This document shows, in pieces, positions 13,512 to 58,091 of a stretch of DNA of 64,000 nucleotides. This DNA comes from Nitrospirota bacterium (lineage in GTDB: Bacteria > Nitrospirota > Thermodesulfovibrionia > Thermodesulfovibrionales > Dissulfurispiraceae), in NCBI GenBank assembly GCA_963710375.1, contig CAVPZX010000005.1:160001-224000 (forward strand). The letters run 5' to 3'. The number at the start of each line of letters is the position of its first letter. Position 1 is the first letter of the stretch. A program made the position numbers and the translations under genes. The notes beneath the pieces are model-generated. The model searched no databases. It saw nothing but the letters and a program-made list of their open reading frames with translations, and had not been told where the DNA came from.

Positions 13512-13964
13512 ATGCAGGGAAGCATAGTTTCCATAAATGTCAGCGATAAAAAGGGCGTAAGAAAAAAGCCTGTCGATGAAGTTACAATCGGCGAAAACTT
13601 CGGAATCGAGGGTGATGCCCATGCTTCATCGGAATGGCACAGGCAGGTAAGCCTGCTCGCTCTTGAGAGCATACAAAAAATGCAGGCAATGGGACTCAAG
13701 GTCCAGCCTGGTGATTTTGCCGAGAACATTACTACGGAGGGGCTCGATCTCCCCGCTCTTCCAATCGGCACAAGGATTCGCCTTGGCAGTGACGTTATCG
13801 GCGAGGTAAGCCAAATCGGCAAGGAATGCCATACGCGGTGCGCTATTTACTACGAGGCTGGTGATTGTGTAATGCCGAAAGAAGGTATTTTTATATGGAT
13901 ACTAAAGGGCGGCGTGGTCAGAAAAGGAGATAAAATAGACGTTAGCATGCGTGACACTTTATGA
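13512..13964 (+). CDS. MOSC domain protein
   Basis: GDAHA..WHRQVSLL, GDFAEN, QIGKECH..C.I....G.C.MP.EG. Confidence 0.9.
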   Translation: MQGSIVSINVSDKKGVRKKPVDEVTIGENFGIEGDAHASSEWHRQVSLLALESIQKMQAMGLKVQPGDFAENITTEGLDLPALPIGTRIRLGSDVIGEVSQIGKECHTRCAIYYEAGDCVMPKEGIFIWILKGGVVRKGDKIDVSMRDTL

Positions 13965-14440
13965 TCACCGTTGCTGTGCTTACATTGAGTGATAAAGGCT
14001 CCAGGGGGGAGCGGGCGGACCAGAGCGGACCCTTGATCGCAGATATCATTAAAGGTATAGGCAGAATCGACTATTATGATACGCTGCCCGATGAGCGGGA
14101 GTTGATAAAAAAGAGACTCCTGGAATATGCCGGCAAGGTAGACCTTGTCCTTACTACCGGCGGCACCGGTCTTTCTCCAAGGGATGTGACTCCGGAGGCA
14201 ACGCTTGATGTGATCGAACGGCAGGTGCCGGGCATTGCAGAGGCCATGAGGATGGAGGGGATGAAAAAGACCGGCAGGTCAATGCTGTCAAGAGCTGTTG
14301 CTGGTGTGAAAGGACAAACGTTGATCATAAACCTGCCAGGGAGCCCCAAAGCGGTCAAGGAAAATCTTGAGACGATTCTTGAGGTCCTTCCCCACGCTGT
14401 TGAGAAAATAAAAGGCGACACCAAGGATTGCGCGCGATGA
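13961..14440 (+). CDS. mogA: Molybdopterin adenylyltransferase MogA/MoaB
   Basis: SDKG, TTGGTG..PRDVTPEAT, SRA, NLPGSPK. Confidence 0.92.
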   Translation: MITVAVLTLSDKGSRGERADQSGPLIADIIKGIGRIDYYDTLPDERELIKKRLLEYAGKVDLVLTTGGTGLSPRDVTPEATLDVIERQVPGIAEAMRMEGMKKTGRSMLSRAVAGVKGQTLIINLPGSPKAVKENLETILEVLPHAVEKIKGDTKDCAR

Positions 14441-15147
14441 AAGACGTCTCTTTTACCCTGTCTTTTTTTGCAGGAGTCCTTTCGTTTCTTTCCCCCTGTG
14501 TTTTGCCGCTCGTCCCTGCATATCTTTCGTTTGTGACAGGGCTTTCCCTGGCAGAGCTTAAATCATCTCCACGCCTGTCAAAGGCCATGGGCAACACGTT
14601 TGCCTTCATAATGGGATTTTCGACGATTTTTGTTGCGCTCGGCGCCTCTTCATCTTTCATTGGCAGCCTGTTCCTGAGGTATCAGGACTATCTCAGGATA
14701 GTGGGGGGCATCCTGACTATCGTATTCGGTTTCTTTATTGCCGGTTTTTTGAAACTTGATTTTCTTATGAGGGAAAAGAGATTCCATATGGATAAGGGGC
14801 CGGCGGGTTATGTTGGAGCATATTTAGTCGGTATGAGCTTTGCTGCCGGATGGACACCCTGTATTGGCCCTATTCTCGGCACTATCTTGATTTATGCAAG
14901 TTCAAAGGCATCGGCAACGTACGGCTTGAAACTCCTTTCCGTTTACTCACTGGGGCTTGCCATTCCGTTTATACTTTCGACACTTGCCATCAATGCGTTT
15001 CTAAGCCATGCAAAAAAGATTTATAAATTCATGAATGTAATAATGATTTTCAGTGGTCTGATATTGATAGCATTCGGCATTATGCTTTTGACCAACAGGG
15101 TCAGTATGCTGTCAGCCATGCTTCCCGATTTGGGAATTAAGTTTTGA
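14428..15147 (+). CDS. ccdA: Cytochrome c biogenesis protein CcdA
   Basis: FLSPCVLPLVP and WTPCIGPILG. Confidence 0.93.
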   Translation: MRAMKDVSFTLSFFAGVLSFLSPCVLPLVPAYLSFVTGLSLAELKSSPRLSKAMGNTFAFIMGFSTIFVALGASSSFIGSLFLRYQDYLRIVGGILTIVFGFFIAGFLKLDFLMREKRFHMDKGPAGYVGAYLVGMSFAAGWTPCIGPILGTILIYASSKASATYGLKLLSVYSLGLAIPFILSTLAINAFLSHAKKIYKFMNVIMIFSGLILIAFGIMLLTNRVSMLSAMLPDLGIKF

Positions 15148-15152
15148 GGACG

Positions 15153-15288
15153 AAAGATGGAAGGTGAGAGCGTGAGAAGTTGTGAAGGTGAGAGTAAAAC
15201 AGAAGTTGAGAAGTTGAGAAGTTGTGAGGTTGGGATTTTGCTCATCTTCGCACCTTCGCACCTTCTCACGCTCTCAACTTCCATCTTT
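15153..15288. repeat. Octamer (GAAGTTGA family) hairpin element at the lptE 5' end
   Basis: aaagatggaaggtgagagcgtgagaag... / ...cttctcacgctctcaacttccatcttt. Confidence 0.9.
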
Positions 15289-16146
15289 TGTTTCTGCTGC
15301 ATTCTTTGTTCCGGCTGCGGGTATACCATTCAAACGAGGGCCAACCTTCCCTTTGAGACCATTTCTATCGGCACGATAGAGAATAAAACATCTGAGCCCA
15401 AACTTCAGGACAGGTGTCACGTGGCATTGGCAGAGACCTTTTCCCAACACGGTTACGAGGTAAGCTCCATTGCCCGCTACAGGCTCCAGGGTGAGATATA
15501 CCGGTTCGAGTTGATCCCTACAACCGAAGTGAACCTCGCTGCGACACAATATCAGATCGTGATGAAGGGGAGCTTTAAACTTGTTGATACGGAAAGCGGC
15601 AAATCGATTCCACTTGGGGCGGACAGCCCGTTTATCACTTATTTCAACGCTAACACCACTGACCCGCTCGAGGAAATTATGACACAAAAAGAGCTCGCGG
15701 AGGCCAGCGCTATGGCAAATCTGGCGCAGACGTTAGTCAGCCTTGTTACTTACAATACTCCCAAAAATTTTGCGAGCCTGCTGTTTAAGCCTGACGATAT
15801 AAAAAATGTGGAGGGCCTTATCGTCAAGCTGAGGGATGCAAAAGACCCGCTCTCGGAATATTTACGGGACCAATTTACTCCGGACCTTCAACGCAAAATA
15901 GATGCCTATAACCAGTTCGATTATTCGGCAAAGGAGCTCAAGACTGCACTGGCCAATGCGTTAAACAGTATAATCCAGAACAAGGACATTTTTGATGAAA
16001 AGCGTTTTGCCCATGTCATGCTCAGCGATGAGACCATGCAGCTTATCAGACAGAATGCGCAAGGCGGTAATCGGGTGAAACTCAACCGGATACTTCTTGA
16101 GGAGGCGTATCCGGACGAACTGCAAAAACCGGCAGGCAATAGGTAA
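15157..16146 (+). CDS. lptE: LptE-like LPS assembly lipoprotein with a repeat-encoded N-terminus and an extra C-terminal domain
   Basis: Lipobox-like CSGC followed by GY; ENKT.EP; position directly upstream of holA. Confidence 0.7.
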   Translation: MEGESVRSCEGESKTEVEKLRSCEVGILLIFAPSHLLTLSTSIFCFCCILCSGCGYTIQTRANLPFETISIGTIENKTSEPKLQDRCHVALAETFSQHGYEVSSIARYRLQGEIYRFELIPTTEVNLAATQYQIVMKGSFKLVDTESGKSIPLGADSPFITYFNANTTDPLEEIMTQKELAEASAMANLAQTLVSLVTYNTPKNFASLLFKPDDIKNVEGLIVKLRDAKDPLSEYLRDQFTPDLQRKIDAYNQFDYSAKELKTALANALNSIIQNKDIFDEKRFAHVMLSDETMQLIRQNAQGGNRVKLNRILLEEAYPDELQKPAGNR

Positions 16147-16156
16147 TGGAAAATAT

Positions 16157-16241
16157 GAAGGTGAGAAGATGGGAAGTTGCGAAGTTGAGCAAACCGGCCT
16201 TCGTAAGTCACACCTTCACACGTTCTCAACTTCTCATCTTC
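16157..16241. repeat. Octamer hairpin element between lptE and holA
   Basis: gaaggtga gaagatgg gaagttgc gaagttga ... caccttc acacgttc tcaacttc tcatcttc. Confidence 0.9.
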
Positions 16242-16250
16242 GGATATTGA

Positions 16251-17153
16251 ATGAGCATAAAGCAATTTCATCAGGAACTTTCCAAGGGGATGCCCTCCCC
16301 GGTGTATCTCTTATACTCATCAGAAGATTTTCTGCTCTATGAGGCTATCTCCGGAATAAAAGAGCAGTGTAGGGATACAGTTGGATTTAATTTTGACGTG
16401 TACGACATTAAGTCGCCTGACGATACGATTCCGGTAGAACAGATTGTGGATATCGTGAACACGATGCCGTTTATATCCGCGCGAAGGATAGTTGTTATCA
16501 ACAACATACAGAAACTTGCCAAAAAGGATGTGCAAAAGATCGAGGCTTACCTGCTTAATCCTGCTGATACTGCGCTTTTGGTAATGCTCCATACAGGTGC
16601 ATCGCCAAAGCTTTTTAGTGCAGCGGCATCAGGAAGCATTAAGACAATTGCTCTTACAGTCCAGGAAAAGGACCTTCACCTGTGGATAAAGGAGCAGGCC
16701 AAACAGAAGAAGGTGCGCCTTACCGACAGCGCGGTCGAATATCTTATTACTATGGCCGGGACTGACCTTGGCATGCTCTCTGCAGAAATAGAAAAGCTTG
16801 CATGTTTTATCAGCGACCGTGTCATTGACGTTGCCGACCTGAAGAGCATCATCTATTCTGGAGTTGAGTATACCGCCTTTGACCTTCTTGATGCGCTTAA
16901 GAGAAAAGATGCGAAGGAGGTATTCAGGATATTTGAGAACGTCACTAAAAATCAGGAACCTCAAATGCTGCTCGGCGCTCTGAATTATTATTATGGACGG
17001 CAAGGGTACGCTTACCAGAAAAAAGATGCATCCGGGCCGGTCCAGACAGTCCGGCTCTTGCATGAGGCGGACTTTGCGATAAAGTCATCGCACAAGTATG
17101 TTATCGAAGATCTGCTTGTTAAGCTGCTTAAAACTCCGAAGATGAGAAGTTGA
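16251..17153 (+). CDS. holA: DNA polymerase III delta subunit
   Basis: PVYLL..E.FL, T.PF....R.V, EIEKL; lptE-holA-rpsT context. Confidence 0.9.
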   Translation: MSIKQFHQELSKGMPSPVYLLYSSEDFLLYEAISGIKEQCRDTVGFNFDVYDIKSPDDTIPVEQIVDIVNTMPFISARRIVVINNIQKLAKKDVQKIEAYLLNPADTALLVMLHTGASPKLFSAAASGSIKTIALTVQEKDLHLWIKEQAKQKKVRLTDSAVEYLITMAGTDLGMLSAEIEKLACFISDRVIDVADLKSIIYSGVEYTAFDLLDALKRKDAKEVFRIFENVTKNQEPQMLLGALNYYYGRQGYAYQKKDASGPVQTVRLLHEADFAIKSSHKYVIEDLLVKLLKTPKMRS

Positions 17154-22419: not shown

Positions 22420-23580
<1,161 letters not shown>

Positions 23581-26325: not shown

Positions 26326-28050
26326 TCACAGTGAAACCTTTATTAGCAATTGCTGAGCCCTTTGGTCGTCCGGCTTTATCTTTAATCCTGCAATTAATTC
26401 CCTGCGCGCCTTTTCCATTTGTCCTGTTTTATAATAGGCCAGTCCAAGATTAAAATGTATCTCCGCGATATCCGGTCTCAGGTTTACAGCAATCAGAAAC
26501 TGCTCCAAAGCCTTGTCAGGTATATTGCTATCTTCATAGGCGCCGCCAAGATTATTATGCACTGCTACATCACCGGGAGATTTCTTAGCAGTGTCTTCCC
26601 ATAGTCTGATTTTGTCTCCCCACAACTCGTTGCGCCGATATGTGGCAATTGCCAAAACTCCTGCTACTAGGACAAGCATCACCAGTATGCCCTTTCCTGC
26701 CTTGAGTGAATGCACCCTTGTCTTTATCAGAAATGCCCCTGTAACCACAGCAATACTTATCCCCACTGAAGGCAAATACACTCTATACTCATCTATAAGC
26801 CTGGTAAGCGGGATAAGGCTTGATTCGACGGAAAGGGTGATAAAAAACCACAGAATCCCGAAGCTGATAAGGCGAAACTCAGTACTGAGGGCAGAGGATT
26901 CAGCACTGAGAGACAAGGACTGAATGCCGTGGACCGCCGGCTGAGTATTCAGTCCTTTCCACTTAATCCATGTTTTTTTCTCAGTCCTCAGCACTAAATA
27001 TATACCCAGTCCAAAGAGCGTGAAGAGCAACAGAAAGGACAGCAACACTTGAGGGTCGAAGGCAGACTTAAACACCGGATAGTCGTAATCAATGTTCTGA
27101 TTCACCGGCATAAACAGTAGTCTCAAGTATGTGACAATAACCCTGAACTCGGTCAGCACATACTCTGGCCGAGAGAACACGACGGAGACATAGCCCGGAA
27201 GAGGGTCTATCCCTGCGCCGGCAGTTCCTTTCAGGTATATAAGTGTCTGCGGAATTATGCTCATGGTGAGAAGCATGAGGGCAAGGGGAATCATTCTACT
27301 TTTCAGAGCGGCTCTAAAGAAAAGGAACTCGTACAAAGTAATTACCAATGGCAGCGTAAAGGCATTCTCCTTCGTCTTCATCGCCAGCACCGCTGAAATG
27401 AAGGATATGCTGTAATAAAAGAGTCTCTGTTGCTTGCCCACAGATAGCCGAGATGATATATAGGCGGTCAGGGAGAGTAGATAGAAAAACGCTGCAAGAG
27501 AGGCAACCCGCTGAAATACATAGGTCACTGCCATTGTTTGAAGAGGATGAACTGCAAACAGCATTGATGAGAAAAAAGCAATATACAGGGAGTTCTGTTT
27601 CATTGACGATTTGGCAAAAAATGGCGTTCTGAATGTCAATAAAACAAGCAAATAAACCAGAATAGAGTTTGCAACATGGATAGCTATATTGACAATATGG
27701 TAGCCAGTCACAGAGAAGCCGTGCATCTTGTAATTAAGTGCAAAGGTGAGAAAGCCGATATATCGGAGCACGAGGAAATTGTAATATTCAAACCCTCGTG
27801 CATCCGACGGGTTTACGAAATAATGAAGGTCCCTTACAATTGGATTTCTGACAAGAAACAAATCCTCATCCCATTGAAACGGAGCATTGAGGGTATTGGA
27901 ATAGATGATGAGAATTATAAAGACTATGCAGGCAATATGCACAAGGGTGTTATTTGGCGATGACCGTGGGCTGAAAGACTCTTGCGATATAGGCATGGGG
28001 CGTTTTTCTGTATTGCTTGTCTTGTTTGTTTTTTTATTTTTCTTTTTCAT
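26326..28050 (-). CDS. TMTC-like membrane glycosyltransferase (GT-C + TPR), paralog 1
   Basis: WDE, YH..N..IH..N, FAVHP..T.AV.Y..QR, KE, E.R.YLP, C-terminal TPRs. Confidence 0.75.
   Translation of the reverse strand: MKKKNKKTNKTSNTEKRPMPISQESFSPRSSPNNTLVHIACIVFIILIIYSNTLNAPFQWDEDLFLVRNPIVRDLHYFVNPSDARGFEYYNFLVLRYIGFLTFALNYKMHGFSVTGYHIVNIAIHVANSILVYLLVLLTFRTPFFAKSSMKQNSLYIAFFSSMLFAVHPLQTMAVTYVFQRVASLAAFFYLLSLTAYISSRLSVGKQQRLFYYSISFISAVLAMKTKENAFTLPLVITLYEFLFFRAALKSRMIPLALMLLTMSIIPQTLIYLKGTAGAGIDPLPGYVSVVFSRPEYVLTEFRVIVTYLRLLFMPVNQNIDYDYPVFKSAFDPQVLLSFLLLFTLFGLGIYLVLRTEKKTWIKWKGLNTQPAVHGIQSLSLSAESSALSTEFRLISFGILWFFITLSVESSLIPLTRLIDEYRVYLPSVGISIAVVTGAFLIKTRVHSLKAGKGILVMLVLVAGVLAIATYRRNELWGDKIRLWEDTAKKSPGDVAVHNNLGGAYEDSNIPDKALEQFLIAVNLRPDIAEIHFNLGLAYYKTGQMEKARRELIAGLKIKPDDQRAQQLLIKVSL
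26878..26996. repeat. Degenerate heptamer (GGACTGA) hairpin in frame in paralog 1
   Basis: gtactga gggcaga ggattca gcactga gagacaa ggactga ... tcagtcc tcagcac. Confidence 0.7.
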
Positions 28051-47914: not shown

Positions 47915-47918
47915 ATAT

Positions 47919-48014
47919 GAAGTTGAGAAATTGAGAAGATGTGAAGATGAGAAAAAGAAATGTAAGCCTGATTTGTTGTCGCGCACCTTCTCACCTTCTC
48001 AGCTTCCCATCTTC
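47919..48014. repeat. Octamer hairpin element directly upstream of the four-helix-bundle gene
   Basis: gaagttga gaaattga gaagatgt gaagatga ... gcaccttc tcaccttc tcagcttc ccatcttc. Confidence 0.92.
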
Positions 48015-48028
48015 GGATCGCCGAAGGT

Positions 48029-48433
48029 GTGATGGTGGGCAATAGTCAGAAAATAAAAAGTGTTAGGGATTTGGATGTTTATAAGATGGCTTTCAATGCG
48101 GCAATGGACATTTGGCAGATAACAAACGGTTTTCCCAAAGAAGAAAAATATTCTCTTGTAGATCAAATAAGGCGTTCTTCAAGATCTGTATGTTCAAATC
48201 TTGCAGAAGCGTGGCGAAAGAGGCGATATAAAGCCGTGTTCAAGAATAAGTTGACTGATGCTATGCAAGAGGCTTCTGAAACGCAGACATGGCTGGAGTT
48301 CAGTGTTGCTTGTAAATATGTTGATCAAAATAAATTTGATGACTTTGATCAAAAATATGAACATATATTAGCTATGTTGAATAATATGGACTTGAAAGCT
48401 GAATCCTTCTGCTTCTCAACTTCTGATAAATAA
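48029..48433 (+). CDS. Four helix bundle protein (23S rRNA IVP / TIGR02436-like)
   Basis: DL.VY, FP.EE.YSL.DQIRRSSRSV..N.AE.W, E..ET.TWL. Confidence 0.93.
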   Translation: MMVGNSQKIKSVRDLDVYKMAFNAAMDIWQITNGFPKEEKYSLVDQIRRSSRSVCSNLAEAWRKRRYKAVFKNKLTDAMQEASETQTWLEFSVACKYVDQNKFDDFDQKYEHILAMLNNMDLKAESFCFSTSDK

Positions 48434-49638
48434 TGTTTAGGGACGTATATAGAGGTAAGCAAGTATTAATCACTGGTCACACGGGATTCAAAGGCTCTTG
48501 GCTTGCCCTGTGGCTCAGAGAGTTAGGAGCGAATATAATCGGTTATTCCCTTGATCCACCTACAAACCCCAATCATTTTGATTTGCTAGCCTCTTCTCAG
48601 GTTCTCACCTTCTCATCTTCTCAACTTCCCAACTTCATCTCTATTTTCGGAGATATACGGGATGTAAAGAAGCTGAATCAGACCTTTCAGAACTATAAGC
48701 CTGATATAGTCTTCCACCTCGCTGCACAACCTCTCGTCAGGTATTCATATAAACATCCGCTCGATACATTTGAGACAAATGTGATAGGGACAATAAATGT
48801 TCTTGAAGCTTGCAGACAGACTGAATCAGTCAGGGCAGTAGTAAATATAACGAGCGACAAGTGCTATGAAAACAAAGAATGGGTATGGGGCTATCGTGAG
48901 AGTGACCCGTTTGGCGGTTACGACCCCTACAGCGCATCAAAAAGTTGCGCAGAGCTTGTGACTAACTGTTACAGGCGCTCTTTCTTTATAACTGAAACTG
49001 AGAAGTTGAGAAGGTGTGAAGGTGAGAGTAAAGCCGAAGGACTCACAACTTCTCAACTTCTCAACTTCACAACTTCAGTCCTTTTAGCCAGCGCAAGAGC
49101 GGGCAATGTCATAGGCGGCGGAGATTGGGCAGCGGACAGATTGATTCCCGACATTATGAGGGCGGTCAGCCGGAATAAGAAGGTTGTTATCAGAAATCCC
49201 AAGTCAACCCGTCCCTGGCAGCATGTGCTGGAGCCGTTGTCAGGTTATCTGGCGCTTGGGCAGAAGCTCTTGGAAGGGAAATCGGAATTTGCCGATGGGT
49301 GGAATTTTGGGCCTGATGATGAAAGCAACATATGTGTTGAAGAAGTTGCAGAAAAGATGACCAGCTTCTGGCATAAAATTGGTTACCAACGCAAACCATT
49401 TAAACATCCAAGCCTCCGGCCATCCGACCCTCATGAGGCTGGTCTGTTAAAACTTGACTGCTCGAAAGCCCATTCAAGGCTTGAGTGGAAACCTGTCTGG
49501 GATATTAAGAAAACGCTTGTAATGACCGCTCAATGGTATAAAGAGTTTTACGAACGTGATGGAATAATGAGTCAGAAGGATTTGGATGAGTATATTCTGA
49601 ATGCGAAGGAAAAAGGTTTGCGTTGGGCAGTTGATTGA
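48433..49638 (+). CDS. rfbG: CDP-glucose 4,6-dehydratase with in-frame repeat inserts
   Basis: TGHTGFKGSWL, HLAAQPLV, YSASK, RAGNVIGGGDW, RPWQHVLEP. Confidence 0.96.
   Translation: MFRDVYRGKQVLITGHTGFKGSWLALWLRELGANIIGYSLDPPTNPNHFDLLASSQVLTFSSSQLPNFISIFGDIRDVKKLNQTFQNYKPDIVFHLAAQPLVRYSYKHPLDTFETNVIGTINVLEACRQTESVRAVVNITSDKCYENKEWVWGYRESDPFGGYDPYSASKSCAELVTNCYRRSFFITETEKLRRCEGESKAEGLTTSQLLNFTTSVLLASARAGNVIGGGDWAADRLIPDIMRAVSRNKKVVIRNPKSTRPWQHVLEPLSGYLALGQKLLEGKSEFADGWNFGPDDESNICVEEVAEKMTSFWHKIGYQRKPFKHPSLRPSDPHEAGLLKLDCSKAHSRLEWKPVWDIKKTLVMTAQWYKEFYERDGIMSQKDLDEYILNAKEKGLRWAVD
48591..48636. repeat. Single octamer arm in frame in rfbG (SSQVLTFSSSQLPNF)
   Basis: tcaggttc tcaccttc tcatcttc tcaacttc ccaacttc. 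Confidence 0.9.
48991..49079. repeat. Octamer hairpin in frame in rfbG (TETEKLRRCEGE..TTSQLLNFTTS)
   Basis: actgaaactgagaagttgagaaggtgtgaaggtgagagt / actcacaacttctcaacttctcaacttcacaacttcagt. Confidence 0.95.
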
Positions 49639-51108: not shown

Positions 51109-53199
51109 TATTTCATTCAGCAATTGCCGGGTTTTTTGGTCATCCGGCTTTATCTTTAACCTTGTCATCAATTGAATGCGCGCATTTTCTATAATATCCG
51201 GTCTCAGGCGCAGGGCAGTTTCGAATTCATTTTTGGCCTTGTCAAGTCTGTCGCTGTCGTAATAAACAAGGCCAAGATTAAAATGTGCTTCTGCGTAATC
51301 GGGCGCAAGTTTAATGGCAATCAGATACTGCTCAATAGATTTGTCAGGCATGTTGATGGCATGATAGGCAATGCCGAGATTATTATGTGCCTCAGCATAA
51401 TCAGGCTTGAGTTTAATGGCAATGATATATTGCTCAATAGCATTGTCAAGCATGTTGCGACTTTTATAAAAATTACCAAGTCTGGCATGTGCATTTGCGT
51501 AACGGGGGAATCTTTTAACTGTATCTTCCCACATTTTTTTGCTGTCTCCATATAGATTGTTCTGCAAATGAGCTGCGACTGACAGAATGCTTATAATAAG
51601 GGCGAGCGTCACTAGTATCACATTGCCGGCTTTCTGTGAACGAATTTTTTCTTTCAGCAGAAATACCCCCGTAACTGTGCAAATGATTACCCCGACCGAG
51701 GGCAGATACATTCGATACGTTTCAATAAGCCTCGGCGTAGGTATAATGCTCGATTCAACTGAAAGGGTGATAAAGAACCACAATATACCGAAACCCATCA
51801 AACGAAAAGCAGGACTAAGGGCAGAGGACTGAGAGGCGAGGACTGAGGACTGAGGACTGAGAGACGAGGACTGAGAGGCGAGGACTGAGGACTGAGGACT
51901 GAGAGACGAGGACTGAGAGGCGAGGACTGAGTTTTCGTCTTCGCGCTTTGCCCTCAGTCCTTTGCCCTTAGTCCTCAGTCCTGGACCCTCTTCCTTTGGC
52001 CCTTTCCACTCAGTCCTCAGTCCTTCGCCCTCAGTCCTCAGTCCTCGCCTCTCTTTTTTCTGCACTAAATAAATCCCCAGTCCAAATAGCGCTGAGAGAA
52101 ACACAAATGAAACGGATACCTGCGGTTGAAAAAAAGACTTAAACACAGGGTACTCATAATTGAGTTCCAGGTTTGCCGGGAAAAACAGCATTCGCAGGTA
52201 AGTGACAATGACCCTGAACTGGGTGAAAAAATACTCTCCCCGCGAGTAGTCCCAGGTGAATCCGGCCATATATGAGCCCGGGTCAATAAGGCTGGGATTA
52301 ATCAGTTGTGTGCCGCGTACTTCGGTCACTGTCGGCATGCTCATAATAGTCAGAGGTATGATGCAAAGTGAAAGCAATAATGGAGCAAGAACGAGCATCC
52401 TCTTCTTAATGCCGCCATTAAAAAAACAAAACTCGTACAACGTTATCACAAAGGGCAGAGTAAACGCATTCTCCTTTGTTTTCATTGCCAGGACCGCTGA
52501 AAGAAGGGATATGGCGTACATAGTCCGGCGCCGGGCTTTATGATGGTCAGGAGCCTCCAATCTGAACTTAATATATGCTGTGAGGGAAAGGAGATAGAAA
52601 AAAGCGGCGAGAGAGGCATAACGTTGCATGACATACGTAACCGCCGCTGTCTGCAGCGGGTGGACGGCAAACAGAGCGGCGGAGAAGAAGGCAATCACTG
52701 CCGGATTGCCTGAACTTGAGAAATTGAGAACTTGTGAAGGTGTGCCCTTTGCCCTATGCCCTATGCCTTTCATGTAAGGTGTTCTGAATGTCAATAGAAC
52801 AAGCAAATAAACCAGGATTGTATTGGCGATATGAATGGCAATATTGACAATATGGTAGCCGGTCACCGATAAACCGTTTATACGGTAGTTGAGCGCAAAG
52901 GTGAGATGCGAGATGTAGCGGGATATGAAAAAACGGTAATTCTCAAACCCTTGAGCTGTTGAGGGGTGAAGGAAATAATTAAGGTCCTTGATAATAGGCT
53001 CGTTAACAATATGCATCTCTTCATCCCACTGAAATGGGACATTCAAGGCATTGGAGTAAATGATCAGAATAAGCAGAGACAGACAAGCGATATGCACAAA
53101 GGAGTTATATGTCAATGACAGCGGACTGAACGATGCATGTGCAGGGGGAAGGTCATTGTGACGGATCAGCTTATTTGTTTTCTTACCCTTGTTTTTCAT
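51100..53199 (-). CDS. TMTC-like GT-C + TPR protein, paralog 2
   Basis: Same motifs as 26326-28050; TPRs. Confidence 0.75.
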   Translation of the reverse strand: MKNKGKKTNKLIRHNDLPPAHASFSPLSLTYNSFVHIACLSLLILIIYSNALNVPFQWDEEMHIVNEPIIKDLNYFLHPSTAQGFENYRFFISRYISHLTFALNYRINGLSVTGYHIVNIAIHIANTILVYLLVLLTFRTPYMKGIGHRAKGTPSQVLNFSSSGNPAVIAFFSAALFAVHPLQTAAVTYVMQRYASLAAFFYLLSLTAYIKFRLEAPDHHKARRRTMYAISLLSAVLAMKTKENAFTLPFVITLYEFCFFNGGIKKRMLVLAPLLLSLCIIPLTIMSMPTVTEVRGTQLINPSLIDPGSYMAGFTWDYSRGEYFFTQFRVIVTYLRMLFFPANLELNYEYPVFKSFFQPQVSVSFVFLSALFGLGIYLVQKKERRGLRTEGEGLRTEWKGPKEEGPGLRTKGKGLRAKREDENSVLASQSSSLSPQSSVLASQSSSLSPQSSVLASQSSALSPAFRLMGFGILWFFITLSVESSIIPTPRLIETYRMYLPSVGVIICTVTGVFLLKEKIRSQKAGNVILVTLALIISILSVAAHLQNNLYGDSKKMWEDTVKRFPRYANAHARLGNFYKSRNMLDNAIEQYIIAIKLKPDYAEAHNNLGIAYHAINMPDKSIEQYLIAIKLAPDYAEAHFNLGLVYYDSDRLDKAKNEFETALRLRPDIIENARIQLMTRLKIKPDDQKTRQLLNEILP
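51811..52053. repeat. Heptamer (GGACTGA) hairpin in frame in paralog 2
   Basis: (ggactga)n ... (tcagtcc)n; encodes GLRTE.. and SPQSSVL.. Confidence 0.95.
52712..52767. repeat. Composite octamer + heptamer insert in frame in paralog 2
   Basis: gaacttga gaaattga gaacttgt gaaggtgt followed by gcccttt gccctat gccctat gcc. Confidence 0.85.
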
Positions 53200-54285
53200 A
53201 AAAGATCCCTGACCGTTTCAGCGTGAGATTGCATTCAATAACTGACGGGCTATCTGGTCATCAGGCTTTATCTTTAATCTCGCTATCAACTCTCTGCGCG
53301 CATTTTCCAGTTGTCCCATATTATAGTAGAGGACTCCGAGATTAAAATGAGCTGTTTCATTATCCGGTTGGAGGCGTATGACAGTTTGTAATTCATTCAC
53401 GGCCTTGTCAGGCATGTTGAGGGACTGATAAAGAATAGCGAGATTATTGTGCGCTTCCACATAGTTGGGCTTCTCCTGTATTGCGGCCAGATAGTGTTCA
53501 GTTGCCTTGCCAGACATGCCCTGATCTTTATAGACATTGGCTAGATTATAATGCGCCTCAGGGTAATCAGGCTTCAGATTAATGGCAGTCTGAAACTCTT
53601 TTATAGCCTTGTCAGGCATGTTGAGGGCCTGATAAACAGCTCCCAGATTATTATACGCTTCTATAAAATCGGGTTTTAGATTAATGGCAGTCAGAAACTC
53701 TTTTATAGCCTTGTCAGGCATTTTGAGGGCCTGATCATAGAGGACGCCAAGATTGTAATGCGCCTTCCAGTGCCCAGGGGCAAGACTTATTGCAGTCAGA
53801 TATTCCTTTAAAGCAGCATCGGGCATACCGAGGTCTTGATAGCTGTTGCCGAGACCGAGATGCGCTTCAGTGGAATCAGGATTAATTTTCAAGGCAAGCT
53901 GAAACTGTTCCGCAGCCTTGTCCGACATGCGATGGTGTCGGTAGGCCAACCCAAGATTATAATGCACTCTTTCTTTTGCAGGGAATTTTAACGCGTCTTC
54001 TTTCCATAACTTGACTTCGTCTCTCCACATATCATTGCGCATATATGTAGCAACTGACAGTACGCCTGCAGCAAGTGCAAGAATGGTTACTATCACCCTA
54101 CCGGCTTTTGGGGAACGCAGATTTTCTTTCAGCAGAAATGCACCGGTAACAACGCAAACAAATATCCCCATTGAAGGCAGATACACGCGGTGTTCAAAAA
54201 TCACATCGGCGATGGGTATGATGCTCGACTCCACTGAGAGAGTGATGAAAAACCACAATATCCCGAAACCCATCAACTTAAAGGC

Positions 54286-54556
54286 AGGACTGAGGGCAGA
54301 GGACTGAGAGGCGAGGACTGAGGACTGAGGACTGAGTGCCAAGGACTGAGAGACGAGGGCAGAGGACTGAGGACTGAGAGACAAGGACTGAGAGGCGAGG
54401 ACTGAGGACTGAGTGTCAAGGACTGAGGACTGAGCAGAGAGGACTGAGTTTTGGTCTTCGATCTTTGCACTCAATCCTCTGCCCTCAGTCCTCAGTCCTG
54501 GATCCTCTTTCCTTTGGCCCTTTCCACTCAGTCCTCAGTCCTCTGTCCTCAGTCCT
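54286..54556. repeat. Heptamer (GGACTGA) hairpin in paralog 3
   Basis: (ggactga)n ... (tcagtcc)n. Confidence 0.95.
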
Positions 54557-55036
54557 TGTTTTTTTCTCGCTCCACAGCACTAAATAAATGCCCAGCCCGA
54601 AAAGCGCGGCAAGAAACATAAACGAAAAGATCACCTGGGGGTAAAAGAAAGATCTATAAATAGGATAGTCATAGTCGACATTCTGTCCTGCGGGGAAAAA
54701 CAGCAGCCGCATATATCTCACAATTACTGAGAACTCCGTCATCAGGTATTGCCATGGCGTCGTCCTTGTCTGCACTGTTATCTTGCTCGCATCCGACAAT
54801 ACTTTCCCCAACGGCTGGCTCACATTCAGCAAGCTCAAAGGAATGATGACCACTGTTGCCAGCAGCGGCAAGGCCCATAGAGCCCTCCTGAGCAGATTGC
54901 CTCTGCCGAAGAACACCAGTTCGTACAACACAACAATAAACGGCAGTGTAAAGGCTATCTCCTTTGTCATCATCGCAAGCACAGCCGAAACAATAGAAAT
55001 CCCATAATAAAAATATGGCATGTATTTTCGTTTTTC

Positions 55037-55310
55037 CCGGCTACCGGCCACCGGCCCCTGGCCACTGTCTTTTGCTTCTTGCCCTCCGCCCTCAGTCCTC
55101 AGTCCTTGGTCCTCTGCCCTCAGTCCTCGCCTCTCAGTCCTCAGTCCTTGGTCCTCTGCCCTCAGTCCTCTGCTCTCAGTCCTCAGTCCTTGGTCCTCCG
55201 CCCTCAGTCCTCGCCTCTCAGTCCTCAGTCCTTGGTCCTCTGCCCTCAGTCCTCGCCTCTCAGTCCTCAGTCCTCTGCCCTCAGTCCTTGTTTTATTACC
55301 CTCAGTCCTT
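55037..55310. repeat. Heptamer array with a 42-bp higher-order unit, in frame in paralog 3
   Basis: ctcagtcctcagtccttggtcctctgccctcagtcctcgcct repeated about 4 times (GLRTERRGLRAEDQ), next to ccggcta ccggcca ccggccc ctggcca. Confidence 0.95.
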
Positions 55311-55454
55311 GACTTTATATATGTCACTAATGAAAGGAGATAAAAAAATGAAGCGAGGGACGCAAGCCTCTGCACTATATAAGTGACCGCCTGAGTTTGG
55401 ATAGGATGCACCGCAAACAAGACAGCAGAGAAGAAGGCGATCAGCCCGGAATCG

Positions 55455-55520
55455 CTGAGTACTAAAGACTGAGGACTTAGGACTGAGGGCATAGGACTGA
55501 GGACTGAGGACTGAGGACTC
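55455..55520. repeat. Heptamer arm in frame in paralog 3
   Basis: Encodes SPQSSVLSPMPSVLSPQSLVLS. Confidence 0.9.
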
Positions 55521-55841
55521 ATGGCCGGTGTTCTGAATGTAAATAGCACAAATAAATAAACCAGCATGGAGTTAGCAATATGAATTGCAAGATTGACTAT
55601 ATGGTAGCCGGTCACATTTGAACCACCCAAGCTGTAGTTCAGGGAAAATGTCAGATACCCGATGAATCGTCTAGAAAAATGTTCATACCCTGTGGAACTG
55701 AACAGAAAATTTCCGATATGACGCACTATACTGTTATCAATTATGTTGAATTCATCGTCAAATACAAACGGCGCATGAAAAGTATTAGAATAACAAATCA
55801 GGCATAATAGAGCTATAATGCCGGCATGTAAGAGCTGGGAA

Positions 55842-58091
55842 TTATGATTTTGATTTGGAAATTTCATTCAGCAACTGTCGGACATTTTGGTCGTTAGGTT
55901 TTATCCTTAATATCGTTGTCAATTCCCTGCGTGCCTTTTCTTTCTGTCCCCTCTCATAATAGAGTTCTCCAAGATTGGAATGCGCCTCTATATAATCGGG
56001 CTTCAGTTTAATGGCAATCAGATAATATTCTATGGCCTTGTCGGGCATTTTCTGGTCTTCATAGATTACGCCAAGATTATTATACGCCTCTGCGCAGTCA
56101 GGCTTTAGTTTAACAGCAATCAGATACTCTTTTAAAGCCCTTCCACGCATGCTGCGGGACTGATAAAACACGCCACCCAGATCAAGATGGGCCTCCACAT
56201 AATCAGGCCTCAGTTCTACGGCAGTCATAAACTCTTTTATAGCTTTCTCGGGCATTTTACGATCTTTATATATATTGCCAAGGTTATAATGTGCCTCAGG
56301 TAAGTCCGGATTAAGCTTGGAAGCAATCATAAACTGCTCAATCGCCTTGTCAGGCATATTACGGTCTCGGTAGATAACCCCGAGGTTATTGTATTCCTCT
56401 GCAGAATCAGGTTTCAGCCCAATGGCAATCCGGTACTGCTCTATGGCTTCATCGAACTTTTTTTGAGACTGATAGAGGCGACCAAGATTATAATGCGCCC
56501 TTTCCTTGGCAGGTGATTTTGCCACGACGTCTTTCCACAGTCTTATACTGTCTCCCCACACTTCGTTCCGCAGATACGTAGCGACCGACAAAACTCCTAT
56601 AGCAAGGGCCAGCATCAAGATTATTACCCTGCCGTACCTGGGCGAACGCACCTTTTCTATTAACAAAAAGGCCCCTGTAACTGTACAAATAATCATTCCT
56701 ATTGAAGGCAGATAAGCACGGTGCTCGTAAATTACATCAGTGATAGGTATTATGCTTGACTCGACCGAAAGAGTGATAAAAAACCACAATATACCAAAAC
56801 CCATCAAACGAAAAGCAGGACTGAGAGGCGAGGACTGAGAGGCGAGGACTGAGGACTGAGCAGTTAGGACTGAGTTTTGGTCTTCGCGCTTTGCACTCAG
56901 TCCTTTGACCTCAGTCCTCAGTCCTGGACCCTCTTCCTTTGGCCCTTTCCACTCAGTCCTCAGTCCTCTGTCCTCAGTCCTTGCTTTATTACCCTCAGTC
57001 CTCAGTCCTTGGTCCTTCGTCTTCAGCACTAAATAAATGCCCAGCCCGAAAAGCGTCACCAGAAACAGAAGCGACAGCATCACCTGGGGATAGAAGAAAG
57101 ATCTATACACCGGATAGTCATAATCGAGGTTCTGCCCTGCAGGGAAAAACAGCAGCCGCACATACGTCACGATCACAGTGAACTCTGTTATCAGATACTG
57201 CCACCGCGTCATGCTTGTTCCCGCCGCAGTCACCTGATTCACATCCGACAACACCTTCCCCAACTGTTGGCCCACATTCAGCATGCTCAGTGGAATGATG
57301 ACCACTGTTGCCAGCAGCGGTAAGGCCCATAGCGTCCTCTTAATCAGATTGCCTCTGCCGAAAAACACCAACTCGTAAATCACAATGATAAACGGCAGCG
57401 TAAAGGCTATCTCCTTTGTCTTCATCGCCAGCACCGCAGAGATAATAGAGATGCTGTAGAAGAAGAGATACCGGAAGTTGCCCTTTGCCCCGCCTGAGGC
57501 GGGCCCTCTGCCCTCTGCTATTAGCCTGAACCGAACATAAAAGTACAACGAGGCAACATAAAACAAAGCTGCCAAAGACGCAAGCCGCTGCACTATGTAT
57601 GTCACTGCCTCGGTTTGGATAGGATGCACCACAAATAACGCGGCAGAAAAAAAGGCAATCAGATTAGAATTTCTGAGGACCGAGGACTGAGGACTGAGAG
57701 GCAAGGACTGAGGACTGAGAGACGAGGACTGAGGGTTCATTAACGGAGTCCTGAATGTAAGCACCACCAATCCATAAACCAGAAGCGCACAGGCCAGATG
57801 TATGGCAAGATTTACTACATGGTAGCCGGTCACATCAAGGCCGCCCAAGCGGTAGTTCAGGGCGAATGTCAGAAACCCTATAAAACGGCGGGGATTATTT
57901 TCATATCCTTTGGAGCTGAAGATAAAATTGCCGATATCATGGACTACCCTGTTATCCCTTATAGAGTATTCGTCGTCAAATATAAACGGCACATGGAAAC
58001 TGTTGGAATAGACGATTATTCCTGCCAAAATTATCAGGAAGGGATAAAAAAAATGATGGGCCGTTGCTGAATTCTTTGCCTTCCGAAACAT
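55842..58091 (-). CDS. TMTC-like GT-C + TPR protein, paralog 4
   Basis: FDD, YH..N..IH, HP.QTEAV.Y..QR, EHR.YLP, multiple TPRs. Confidence 0.78.
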   Translation of the reverse strand: MFRKAKNSATAHHFFYPFLIILAGIIVYSNSFHVPFIFDDEYSIRDNRVVHDIGNFIFSSKGYENNPRRFIGFLTFALNYRLGGLDVTGYHVVNLAIHLACALLVYGLVVLTFRTPLMNPQSSSLSPQSLPLSPQSSVLRNSNLIAFFSAALFVVHPIQTEAVTYIVQRLASLAALFYVASLYFYVRFRLIAEGRGPASGGAKGNFRYLFFYSISIISAVLAMKTKEIAFTLPFIIVIYELVFFGRGNLIKRTLWALPLLATVVIIPLSMLNVGQQLGKVLSDVNQVTAAGTSMTRWQYLITEFTVIVTYVRLLFFPAGQNLDYDYPVYRSFFYPQVMLSLLFLVTLFGLGIYLVLKTKDQGLRTEGNKARTEDRGLRTEWKGPKEEGPGLRTEVKGLSAKREDQNSVLTAQSSVLASQSSPLSPAFRLMGFGILWFFITLSVESSIIPITDVIYEHRAYLPSIGMIICTVTGAFLLIEKVRSPRYGRVIILMLALAIGVLSVATYLRNEVWGDSIRLWKDVVAKSPAKERAHYNLGRLYQSQKKFDEAIEQYRIAIGLKPDSAEEYNNLGVIYRDRNMPDKAIEQFMIASKLNPDLPEAHYNLGNIYKDRKMPEKAIKEFMTAVELRPDYVEAHLDLGGVFYQSRSMRGRALKEYLIAVKLKPDCAEAYNNLGVIYEDQKMPDKAIEYYLIAIKLKPDYIEAHSNLGELYYERGQKEKARRELTTILRIKPNDQNVRQLLNEISKSKS
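56817..57030. repeat. Heptamer (GGACTGA) hairpin in frame in paralog 4
   Basis: Same site and loop as 51811-52053. Confidence 0.93.
57673..57734. repeat. Heptamer arm in frame in paralog 4
   Basis: Encodes PQSSSLSPQSLPLSPQSSVL. Confidence 0.9.

Follow-up and report, generated by a model that had tools for sequence, protein, structure and literature searches.

A hairpin repeat cassette as the probable source of the lipoprotein signal of an LptE-family gene in a Nitrospirota bacterium

Among the described repeats that come closest to the element considered here are the CTCTT pentamers of the Neisseria opa genes, where, in the sections of the account drawn on here (PMC3960869), pyrimidine-rich short tandem repeats code for part of an export leader, much as they do at the lptE gene discussed below. 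The Rickettsia palindromic elements, or RPEs, and MITEs provide another parallel: like the lptE element, which is probably translated, they are dispersed palindromes, of about 150 bp, that are translated within host proteins. The RPEs code for a conserved peptide, and the reviewed passages of that source do not speak of signal peptides (PMC10969869). Repeats with 7-nt units near gene ends have been reported as inverted GGGAATC pairs in Xanthomonas (PMC4692102) and as TAACTGA repeats in Beggiatoaceae, Cyanobacteria and Bacteroidetes (PMC4679880); going by the portions of the two papers used here, such heptamers sometimes form inverted pairs, vary between strains by whole units and occasionally lie within ORFs, as do the elements described below. 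The term "signal peptide" has 0 occurrences in the main texts of these two papers, and their supplements, which list in-ORF repeats, could bear on this point. A literature search that covered few subscription journals returned no description of signal peptides encoded by hairpin repeats. The locus presented here is a real and well-supported case of a repeat-derived export leader.

The window, a stretch of 64,000 nt from a Nitrospirota genome (G000; contig CAVPZX010000005.1, positions 160,001 to 224,000 of the forward strand), includes an open frame at 15157-16146 (+) that codes for 329 aa and crosses both arms of a hairpin to reach a lipobox, C-S-G-C, at residue 54. The hairpin occupies 15148-15293, with 15148-15190 pairing with 15251-15293; its minimum free energy is -82.2 kcal/mol (z -7.16), none of 200 shuffles was equally stable, and the long hairpin described in the first-pass annotation is thus real. 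Read from the ATG at 15157, codons 1-46 of the frame consist of hairpin DNA, and the stem ends inside codon 46. The purine arm (15148-15234, +) is made of two 8-mer blocks with the consensus GAAGNTGN and a short A-rich spacer between them; it codes for residues 1-26, if translated, and contains a GTG at 15172 and a TTG at 15214. The loop, GGGATTTTG (15232-15240, +), contains a second TTG at 15238 and is common to intergenic copies of the element and to two efflux-lipoprotein leaders. Complementary 8-mer units form the pyrimidine arm (15241-15293, +), which codes for residues 29-46 (LIFAPSHLLTLSTSIFCF), and the non-repeat tail CCILCSG-C (15295-15318, +), with the lipobox and Cys54, stays in place when the cassette is replaced. 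On the 5' side, a Shine-Dalgarno-like GAGGA (15146-15150), a 6-nt spacer and the ATG, the likely start, make up a segment (15146-15159, +) that the outer stem hides in the full RNA fold.

A contig from run X4, which belongs to another study and was not flagged as a possible source of the assembly, matches 14800-16190 with no differences, and because it does so from separate data, an assembly artefact was rejected as the origin of the hairpin and its frame. Rfam models gave only sub-threshold matches to miRNA hairpins at this site, with nothing near a gathering score, and a scan for promoters and terminators gave counts no higher than those in shuffles. No clear target-site duplication was found around the elements, the longest flanking direct repeat being a 5-nt T-rich word.

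By homology and predicted fold, the protein is assigned to the LptE family. Its own sequence (P0001) found no LptE match among Pfam and NCBIfam profiles, missing PF04390, and a PDB sequence search returned a single weak match (4kwy, E 0.14). The family is present, however, in 58 of 67 homologs (15 of 18 in a smaller set), and one 70% identical homolog, P0031, passes the PF04390 cut-off at 28 bits. In a search with the predicted structure (pLDDT 66 overall, higher over residues 11-140) the best matches were 8h1r_B (E 5e-7) and 8h1s_B (E 7.5e-7), the LptE chains of LptDE complexes; PelC and HpaA, which have the same fold, were also matched. The LptE-family domain spans 15319-15756 (+; about residues 55-200), and it is followed by an extra helical domain of about 125 aa, from 15769 to about 16143-16146 (+), that belongs to no Pfam family. 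Predicted-structure matches to this C-terminal domain (TM 0.70-0.74) are to parts of transporter-type proteins that are commonest in Planctomycetota; the domain is frameshifted in genome G005, and some LptE homologs reach about 430 aa.

Immediately upstream lies a gene of the ccdA/DsbD-TM family (14428-15147, +; PF02683, E 2.7e-15), preceded within 13512-15147 by MOSC and molybdopterin-binding genes. The TGA of ccdA (15145-15147) overlaps the ribosome-binding site of lptE, and the ATG at 15157 is no more than five codons of DNA downstream. This neighbor is found upstream of lptE in the seven genus members compared; in other genera the position is taken by sequence resembling the end of leuS. 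Directly 3' of lptE is holA, for the delta subunit of DNA polymerase III (16251-17153, +; TIGR01128, E 1.1e-47), an order also found in model bacteria. A second 8-mer hairpin fills the lptE-holA junction (16155-16248, no strand assigned) and is not translated into holA, whose ATG is just past the arm. This junction hairpin is swapped too: it is an 8-mer in G000 and G003, a differing 7-mer in each of G001 and G002, and absent from G007. An lptE ortholog was found in 56 of the 61 genomes searched, with a single match per genome, and the source names of the homologs indicate Nitrospirota. LspA is encoded in G000; a PF04453 search for LptD there found none, with a weak control, as the profile matched in 2 of 14 genomes. 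Background on the family, as given in part of one source, places LptE among the seven essential Lpt proteins of E. coli and describes it as nearly dispensable for growth of P. aeruginosa, where depletion impairs growth slightly, so LptE is not essential everywhere (PMC7204523).

The peptides and the CSG-C lipobox read from this leader in the first pass stand as written, with Cys54 as the +1 residue. The composition of the leader is less orthodox. Sec/SPII lipoprotein signals, as outlined in the relevant part of PMC9360617, have an n-region of positive charge, with Leu as the consensus at -3; set against this textbook signal, the lptE leader is long, has an acidic n-region and carries Cys instead of Leu at -3 (PMC9360617). 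Residues 1-24 hold four K/R against seven D/E, with K19 and R21 near the h-region, and do not form a positively charged n-region. The purine arm does code for a charged stretch, as had been proposed, but one that is net acidic (seven E, four K/R) rather than basic. Kyte-Doolittle means are 3.31 for residues 25-31 (the loop and the start of the arm), 0.42 for residues 32-42 and 3.24 for residues 43-50; over residues 36-50 the mean is 2.29, and a hydrophobic h-region is present before the lipobox, with Pro and His in the apolar stretch. The part of that stretch for which the pyrimidine arm codes is uneven: residues 32-42 are barely apolar, and the patch beside the lipobox is half non-repeat, because the stem ends in codon 46. 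Across the genome census described below, 8-mer arms have K+R of 0.26 and D+E of 0.21 on the purine side and a hydropathy of 0.36 on the pyrimidine side, and 7-mer arms have 0.28, 0.10 and 0.92, respectively. The suggestion that purine-then-pyrimidine polarity naturally yields charged-then-apolar peptides therefore applies strongly to 7-mers and weakly to this 8-mer (0.36 vs 0.92), and a basic-then-apolar, neatly co-opted signal is too tidy a picture for the lptE copy.

The hairpin is one of many. An initial scan of G000 found 110 array pairs in purine-then-pyrimidine order and 0 in the reverse order, and a stricter census retained 98 hairpins, of which 81 have a 7-nt and 17 an 8-nt period; its thresholds miss the lptE element and the leaders of two OEP-family lipoproteins, and these three were counted separately. 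The arms and loop of the lptE element recur in both OEP leaders and, intergenically, in G000-G003 (for example G000:C6:32629, 88% over 100 nt), and its 8-mer family forms 36 clusters in G000. Ten of the 36 clusters lie in the 15159-52730 region of the window, which as a whole is 2% of the genome, and this regional clustering suggests local copying or an imported block. Pattern scans of metagenomes gave 0 loci at first and then two, of which the first matches the G001 leader exactly and the second is intergenic. Two of six contig matches (L031 and L034) were set aside as chance matches without repeat arms.

Downstream of an arm, the census lists 123 long frames, and 54 rows are open into the pyrimidine arm; these were classed by hand, after the translations had been seen. 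Eleven of the 54 continue into proteins that are exported or carry a signal and whose translation would have to begin within the arm or upstream of it, there being no ATG or GTG from the arm to the cleavage site: RlpA-like, TolB, SBP_bac_5, FlgH, FlgA, FliP, an Ig-domain lipoprotein, a sensor kinase and three that were classed from the leader alone, namely a carbonic anhydrase, an AhpC/TlpA-like protein and a lipoprotein without a family. Another 31 lead to other Pfam-identified proteins, all of which have a start no earlier than the end of the arm and ahead of the domain, and 12 are unclassed (one duplicate, four judged spurious and unscanned, five without a Pfam match, one internal insertion and a split trpE). 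Arms are also translated well away from export signals. In G003, G005 and G007 the TrpE linker contains both of them in frame, and an 8-mer pyrimidine arm is in frame within a loop of tgt, the gene for tRNA-guanine transglycosylase, at about 22990-23045 of the window (-; L118). Since arms are in frame in such places, the pattern points to tolerance of hairpins in segments under little constraint, where they often prove useful, rather than to specific co-option. Co-option as an export signal, as first put forward, thus keeps its basis in the genome-wide use of arms by export leaders, but the same hairpins occur in TrpE and tgt and the lptE leader is replaced in close relatives.

The trpE-type gene at G000:C5:322079-323582 (-; L116, L117, L140) is split by a frameshift at its 7-mer linker hairpin, while in six congeners the frame runs unbroken for 492-542 aa; the split could come from slippage or from an error of assembly. 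At 51200-57900 and 26430-27920, the window has several related copies of a gene that contains TPRs; they carry long 7-mer hairpins of the GAGGACT type, and in one case the hairpin is in frame within the gene. A four-helix-bundle gene at 47917-48640 (L095; PF05635) has 8-mer arrays on both flanks and is a candidate for a role in the spread of the repeats.

Leaders were read for all but the six weakest-matching of the 56 orthologs, and the lipobox Cys is conserved in 49 of these 50 loci (in one it was not located). All 49 leaders have open frames. Periodic DNA of 7 or 8 nt occurs in the 66 nt before the Cys in 18 of the 49, against 0 of 246 mature-domain windows, in a sample whose related members are not independent, and the periodic leaders use different units, giving peptides such as TAYCLL, FTFHFSL, VTCYLL and ALCALL. 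The usual leader of the genus has about 28 residues; its start lies between the arms and a 7-mer arm supplies the h-region. This form is found in G003, which shares 89% of amino acids with G000 over 270 codons of mature lptE. In the comparison of ortholog N-termini that the first-pass annotation had proposed, repeat-coded h-regions are present in 18 of the 49, but the hairpin leader is not a fixed feature and is replaced among close relatives. The sister of P0001 in a tree of mature proteins is P0079 (99/97 support), and P0079 and P0078 have a different leader, of 43 residues, with the same CCILCSG-C tail; judged from its peptide, this leader looks like a product of another 8-mer family of the genome. 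The leader differs at the level of strains too. In two contigs of run X6 other letters replace the lptE leader, and one of the two rejoins the G000 sequence at 15297, which is codon 47; the strain comparison at this locus covered 4 of the 16 listed runs. The locus illustrates strain-level replacement of a leader, together with its probable horizontal sharing, in an envelope gene that is single-copy and conserved.

The case for horizontal sharing comes from G001, whose leader is colinear with that of G000 over 162 nt, with 91.4% nucleotide identity and the same number of units. Identity falls to 73.4% in mature lptE (Fisher p 1.5e-7) and 82.3% in ccdA (p 0.005); at fourfold sites the excess in the leader is marginal (4/19 vs 70/154 sites changed, p 0.05). 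The two leaders differ by 14 substitutions, none of which makes a stop; these alter 13 codons, 7 of them non-synonymously. When 27 mature proteins are placed in a tree, the one from G001 falls among proteins that have 7-mer leaders (100/100), and forcing it together with P0001, a pair picked from the leader match after a smaller tree, is rejected (AU p 4.35e-5). Neither the leader peptide nor the hairpin structure is tightly conserved. Because the leaders are 91% identical and the mature genes 73%, and because monophyly of the proteins is rejected, the cassette likely moves by recombination, and transfer of the junction between lineages would be the simplest reading of these sequences; old shared ancestry with repeated loss or replacement is less probable.

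We consider it probable that the hairpin leader of lptE is a cassette that was recombined in and is translated from the ATG at 15157 into a predicted lipoprotein signal. A dispersed 8-mer hairpin copy would have been inserted between the ccdA stop and the CCILCSG-C tail, replacing the usual 28-residue leader. The product would then be a 53-residue signal, with predicted lipidation at Cys54 and cleavage there, and the ATG might be held open by ribosomes that are ending ccdA or that load before the right arm is transcribed. The U-rich arm and the retained tail could supply enough hydrophobicity for Sec and for Lgt/LspA, the purine-arm peptide being a tolerated extension. Because the leader is cleaved off the protein, selection on it would be minimal and would require no more than that the frame be open and that a start and some apolar stretch be present, and cassettes with different units could thereby swap within and between species. 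The leader would then likely reflect a purifying-selection filter on mobile repeat DNA rather than a purpose-built signal or switch. A broader proposal, which we offer only tentatively, is that in these bacteria tandem-unit hairpins serve as interchangeable gene-junction cassettes, such that recombination at conserved flanks moves a ribosome-binding site, a start codon and an export leader between strains and species, and even a core gene of outer-membrane biogenesis swaps its whole signal faster than its synonymous sites change.

Much of this depends on where translation begins. The ATG at 15157 is, as first noted, the only in-frame ATG before the lipobox, and it sits in the left arm behind GAGGA; it is not the sole candidate, however, as the frame also contains the GTG at 15172 and the TTGs at 15214 and 15238. 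To open -15 to +12 in the full fold takes 30.5 kcal/mol for the ATG, 31.6 for the GTG, 7.4 for TTG 15214 and 11.9 for TTG 15238. The ATG cost drops to 6.4 kcal/mol with 15130-15160 kept open, as by the footprint of a ribosome at the ccdA stop, and to 6-8 before the right arm is complete (8.1 with a transcript ending at 15260). Translation probably starts at the ATG, coupled to ccdA. A start in the same cassette at TTG 15238 or TTG 15214, which would limit translation to the pyrimidine arm plus no more than one purine block and give a signal of 26 or 34 residues, is rather unlikely, though it has real attractions: the loop is the start site in most orthologs, the resulting lengths are usual for the LptE family, the two TTGs are the cheaper to open in the full fold, and TTG 15238 has the strongest Shine-Dalgarno energy (-6.3 kcal/mol, from GAGGT, against -5.6 for the ATG). 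But GAGGT is missing in G001 (-4.3; the G001 leader used for these energies and for folding was taken from the identical locus L036), TTG 15214 is nearly without such a site (-1.7), and starting in the loop leaves the h-region with no preceding basic residue. The ATG and its Shine-Dalgarno sequence (again -5.6) are kept in G001, where the sole indel relative to the lptE copy is in the spacer between them, and the called starts of P0078, P0079 and several other exported genes come no later than the left arm. The left arm has only two unit positions able to give an in-frame TGA, and neither does so in G000 or G001; as 51% of units end in A, absence at both has a chance probability of about 0.24, which makes for weak stop avoidance. 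Among copies in the same register (L129, out of register, was dropped), four of six non-coding ones contain a stop against none of three gene-leading ones, two of which are related.

The outer stem, near-perfect in G000 (34/37), sequesters both the Shine-Dalgarno sequence and the ATG, which a ribosome at the ccdA stop would release, and one might see in this a selected RNA control that makes lptE translation depend on ccdA; the split of trpE by a sister hairpin, where six congeners are continuous, similarly brings to mind a repeat tract for phase variation. Both ideas are improbable. Conserved RNA structure is unsupported, for of 35 outer-stem pairs compared between G001 and G000 four have changed, one by compensation and three by breakage; most orthologs have a start outside the stem or no hairpin, nothing in Rfam comes near a gathering score, and ccdA precedes lptE in the seven genus members compared, leuS-like sequence in other genera. 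As for phase variation, unit number is the same in G000 and G001 and the frames of 49/49 leaders are open. It is more improbable still that the cassette simply damaged the leader, leaving a protein that is poorly made or unlipidated in a cell that tolerates this. The acidic n-region, the Pro and His in the apolar stretch, the Cys at -3 and the failure of P0001 alone to match PF04390 would fit such damage, as would the slight effect of LptE depletion on P. aeruginosa growth described in the part of PMC7204523 cited above. However, the mature domain is intact, at 89% amino acid identity to G003 over 270 codons, the leader has stayed in frame through 14 substitutions in two lineages, and the identical sequence recurs in the independent X4 study. 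The recombined, translated cassette remains the preferred account.

A leader of this kind points to a source of signal-peptide diversity in which repeat DNA overwrites a signal in one step, instead of residue-wise drift, helped by the fact that, whatever the frame, the U-rich strand of the repeats translates into apolar residues. LptE lends itself to study, being single-copy with many orthologs, and the natural pair of leaders on the near-identical mature proteins P0001 and P0079 allows a direct test of what a lipoprotein signal minimally requires, for instance in n-region charge and in length. There is also a practical consequence, in that start calls and signal predictions are unreliable in repeat-rich Nitrospirota genomes.

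Set beside the systems with which we began, the lptE leader is distinct in several ways. With LptE/RlpB proteins (PF04390) the lptE product shares the fold, the position of the lipobox, holA downstream and family matches in most homologs, and it differs in its repeat-derived leader of probably 53 residues, in the extra domain of some 125 aa at its C-terminus, in having ccdA as the upstream neighbor and in a score below the Pfam threshold. In opa, as far as the cited sections go, one direct tract drives phase variation, whereas lptE has degenerate 8-mers, a two-arm hairpin and a genome-wide family (PMC3960869); length switching of the opa type was not seen at the locus in contigs, from which rare variants are dropped, and the units are degenerate. 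Unlike RPEs, the lptE-type elements consist of tandem units, fall into many unit families, lack a clear target-site duplication and are enriched in export leaders. From the heptamers of Xanthomonas and the other groups they are set apart by arms of 7- or 8-mers, by their purine-then-pyrimidine order and by the supply of export signals.
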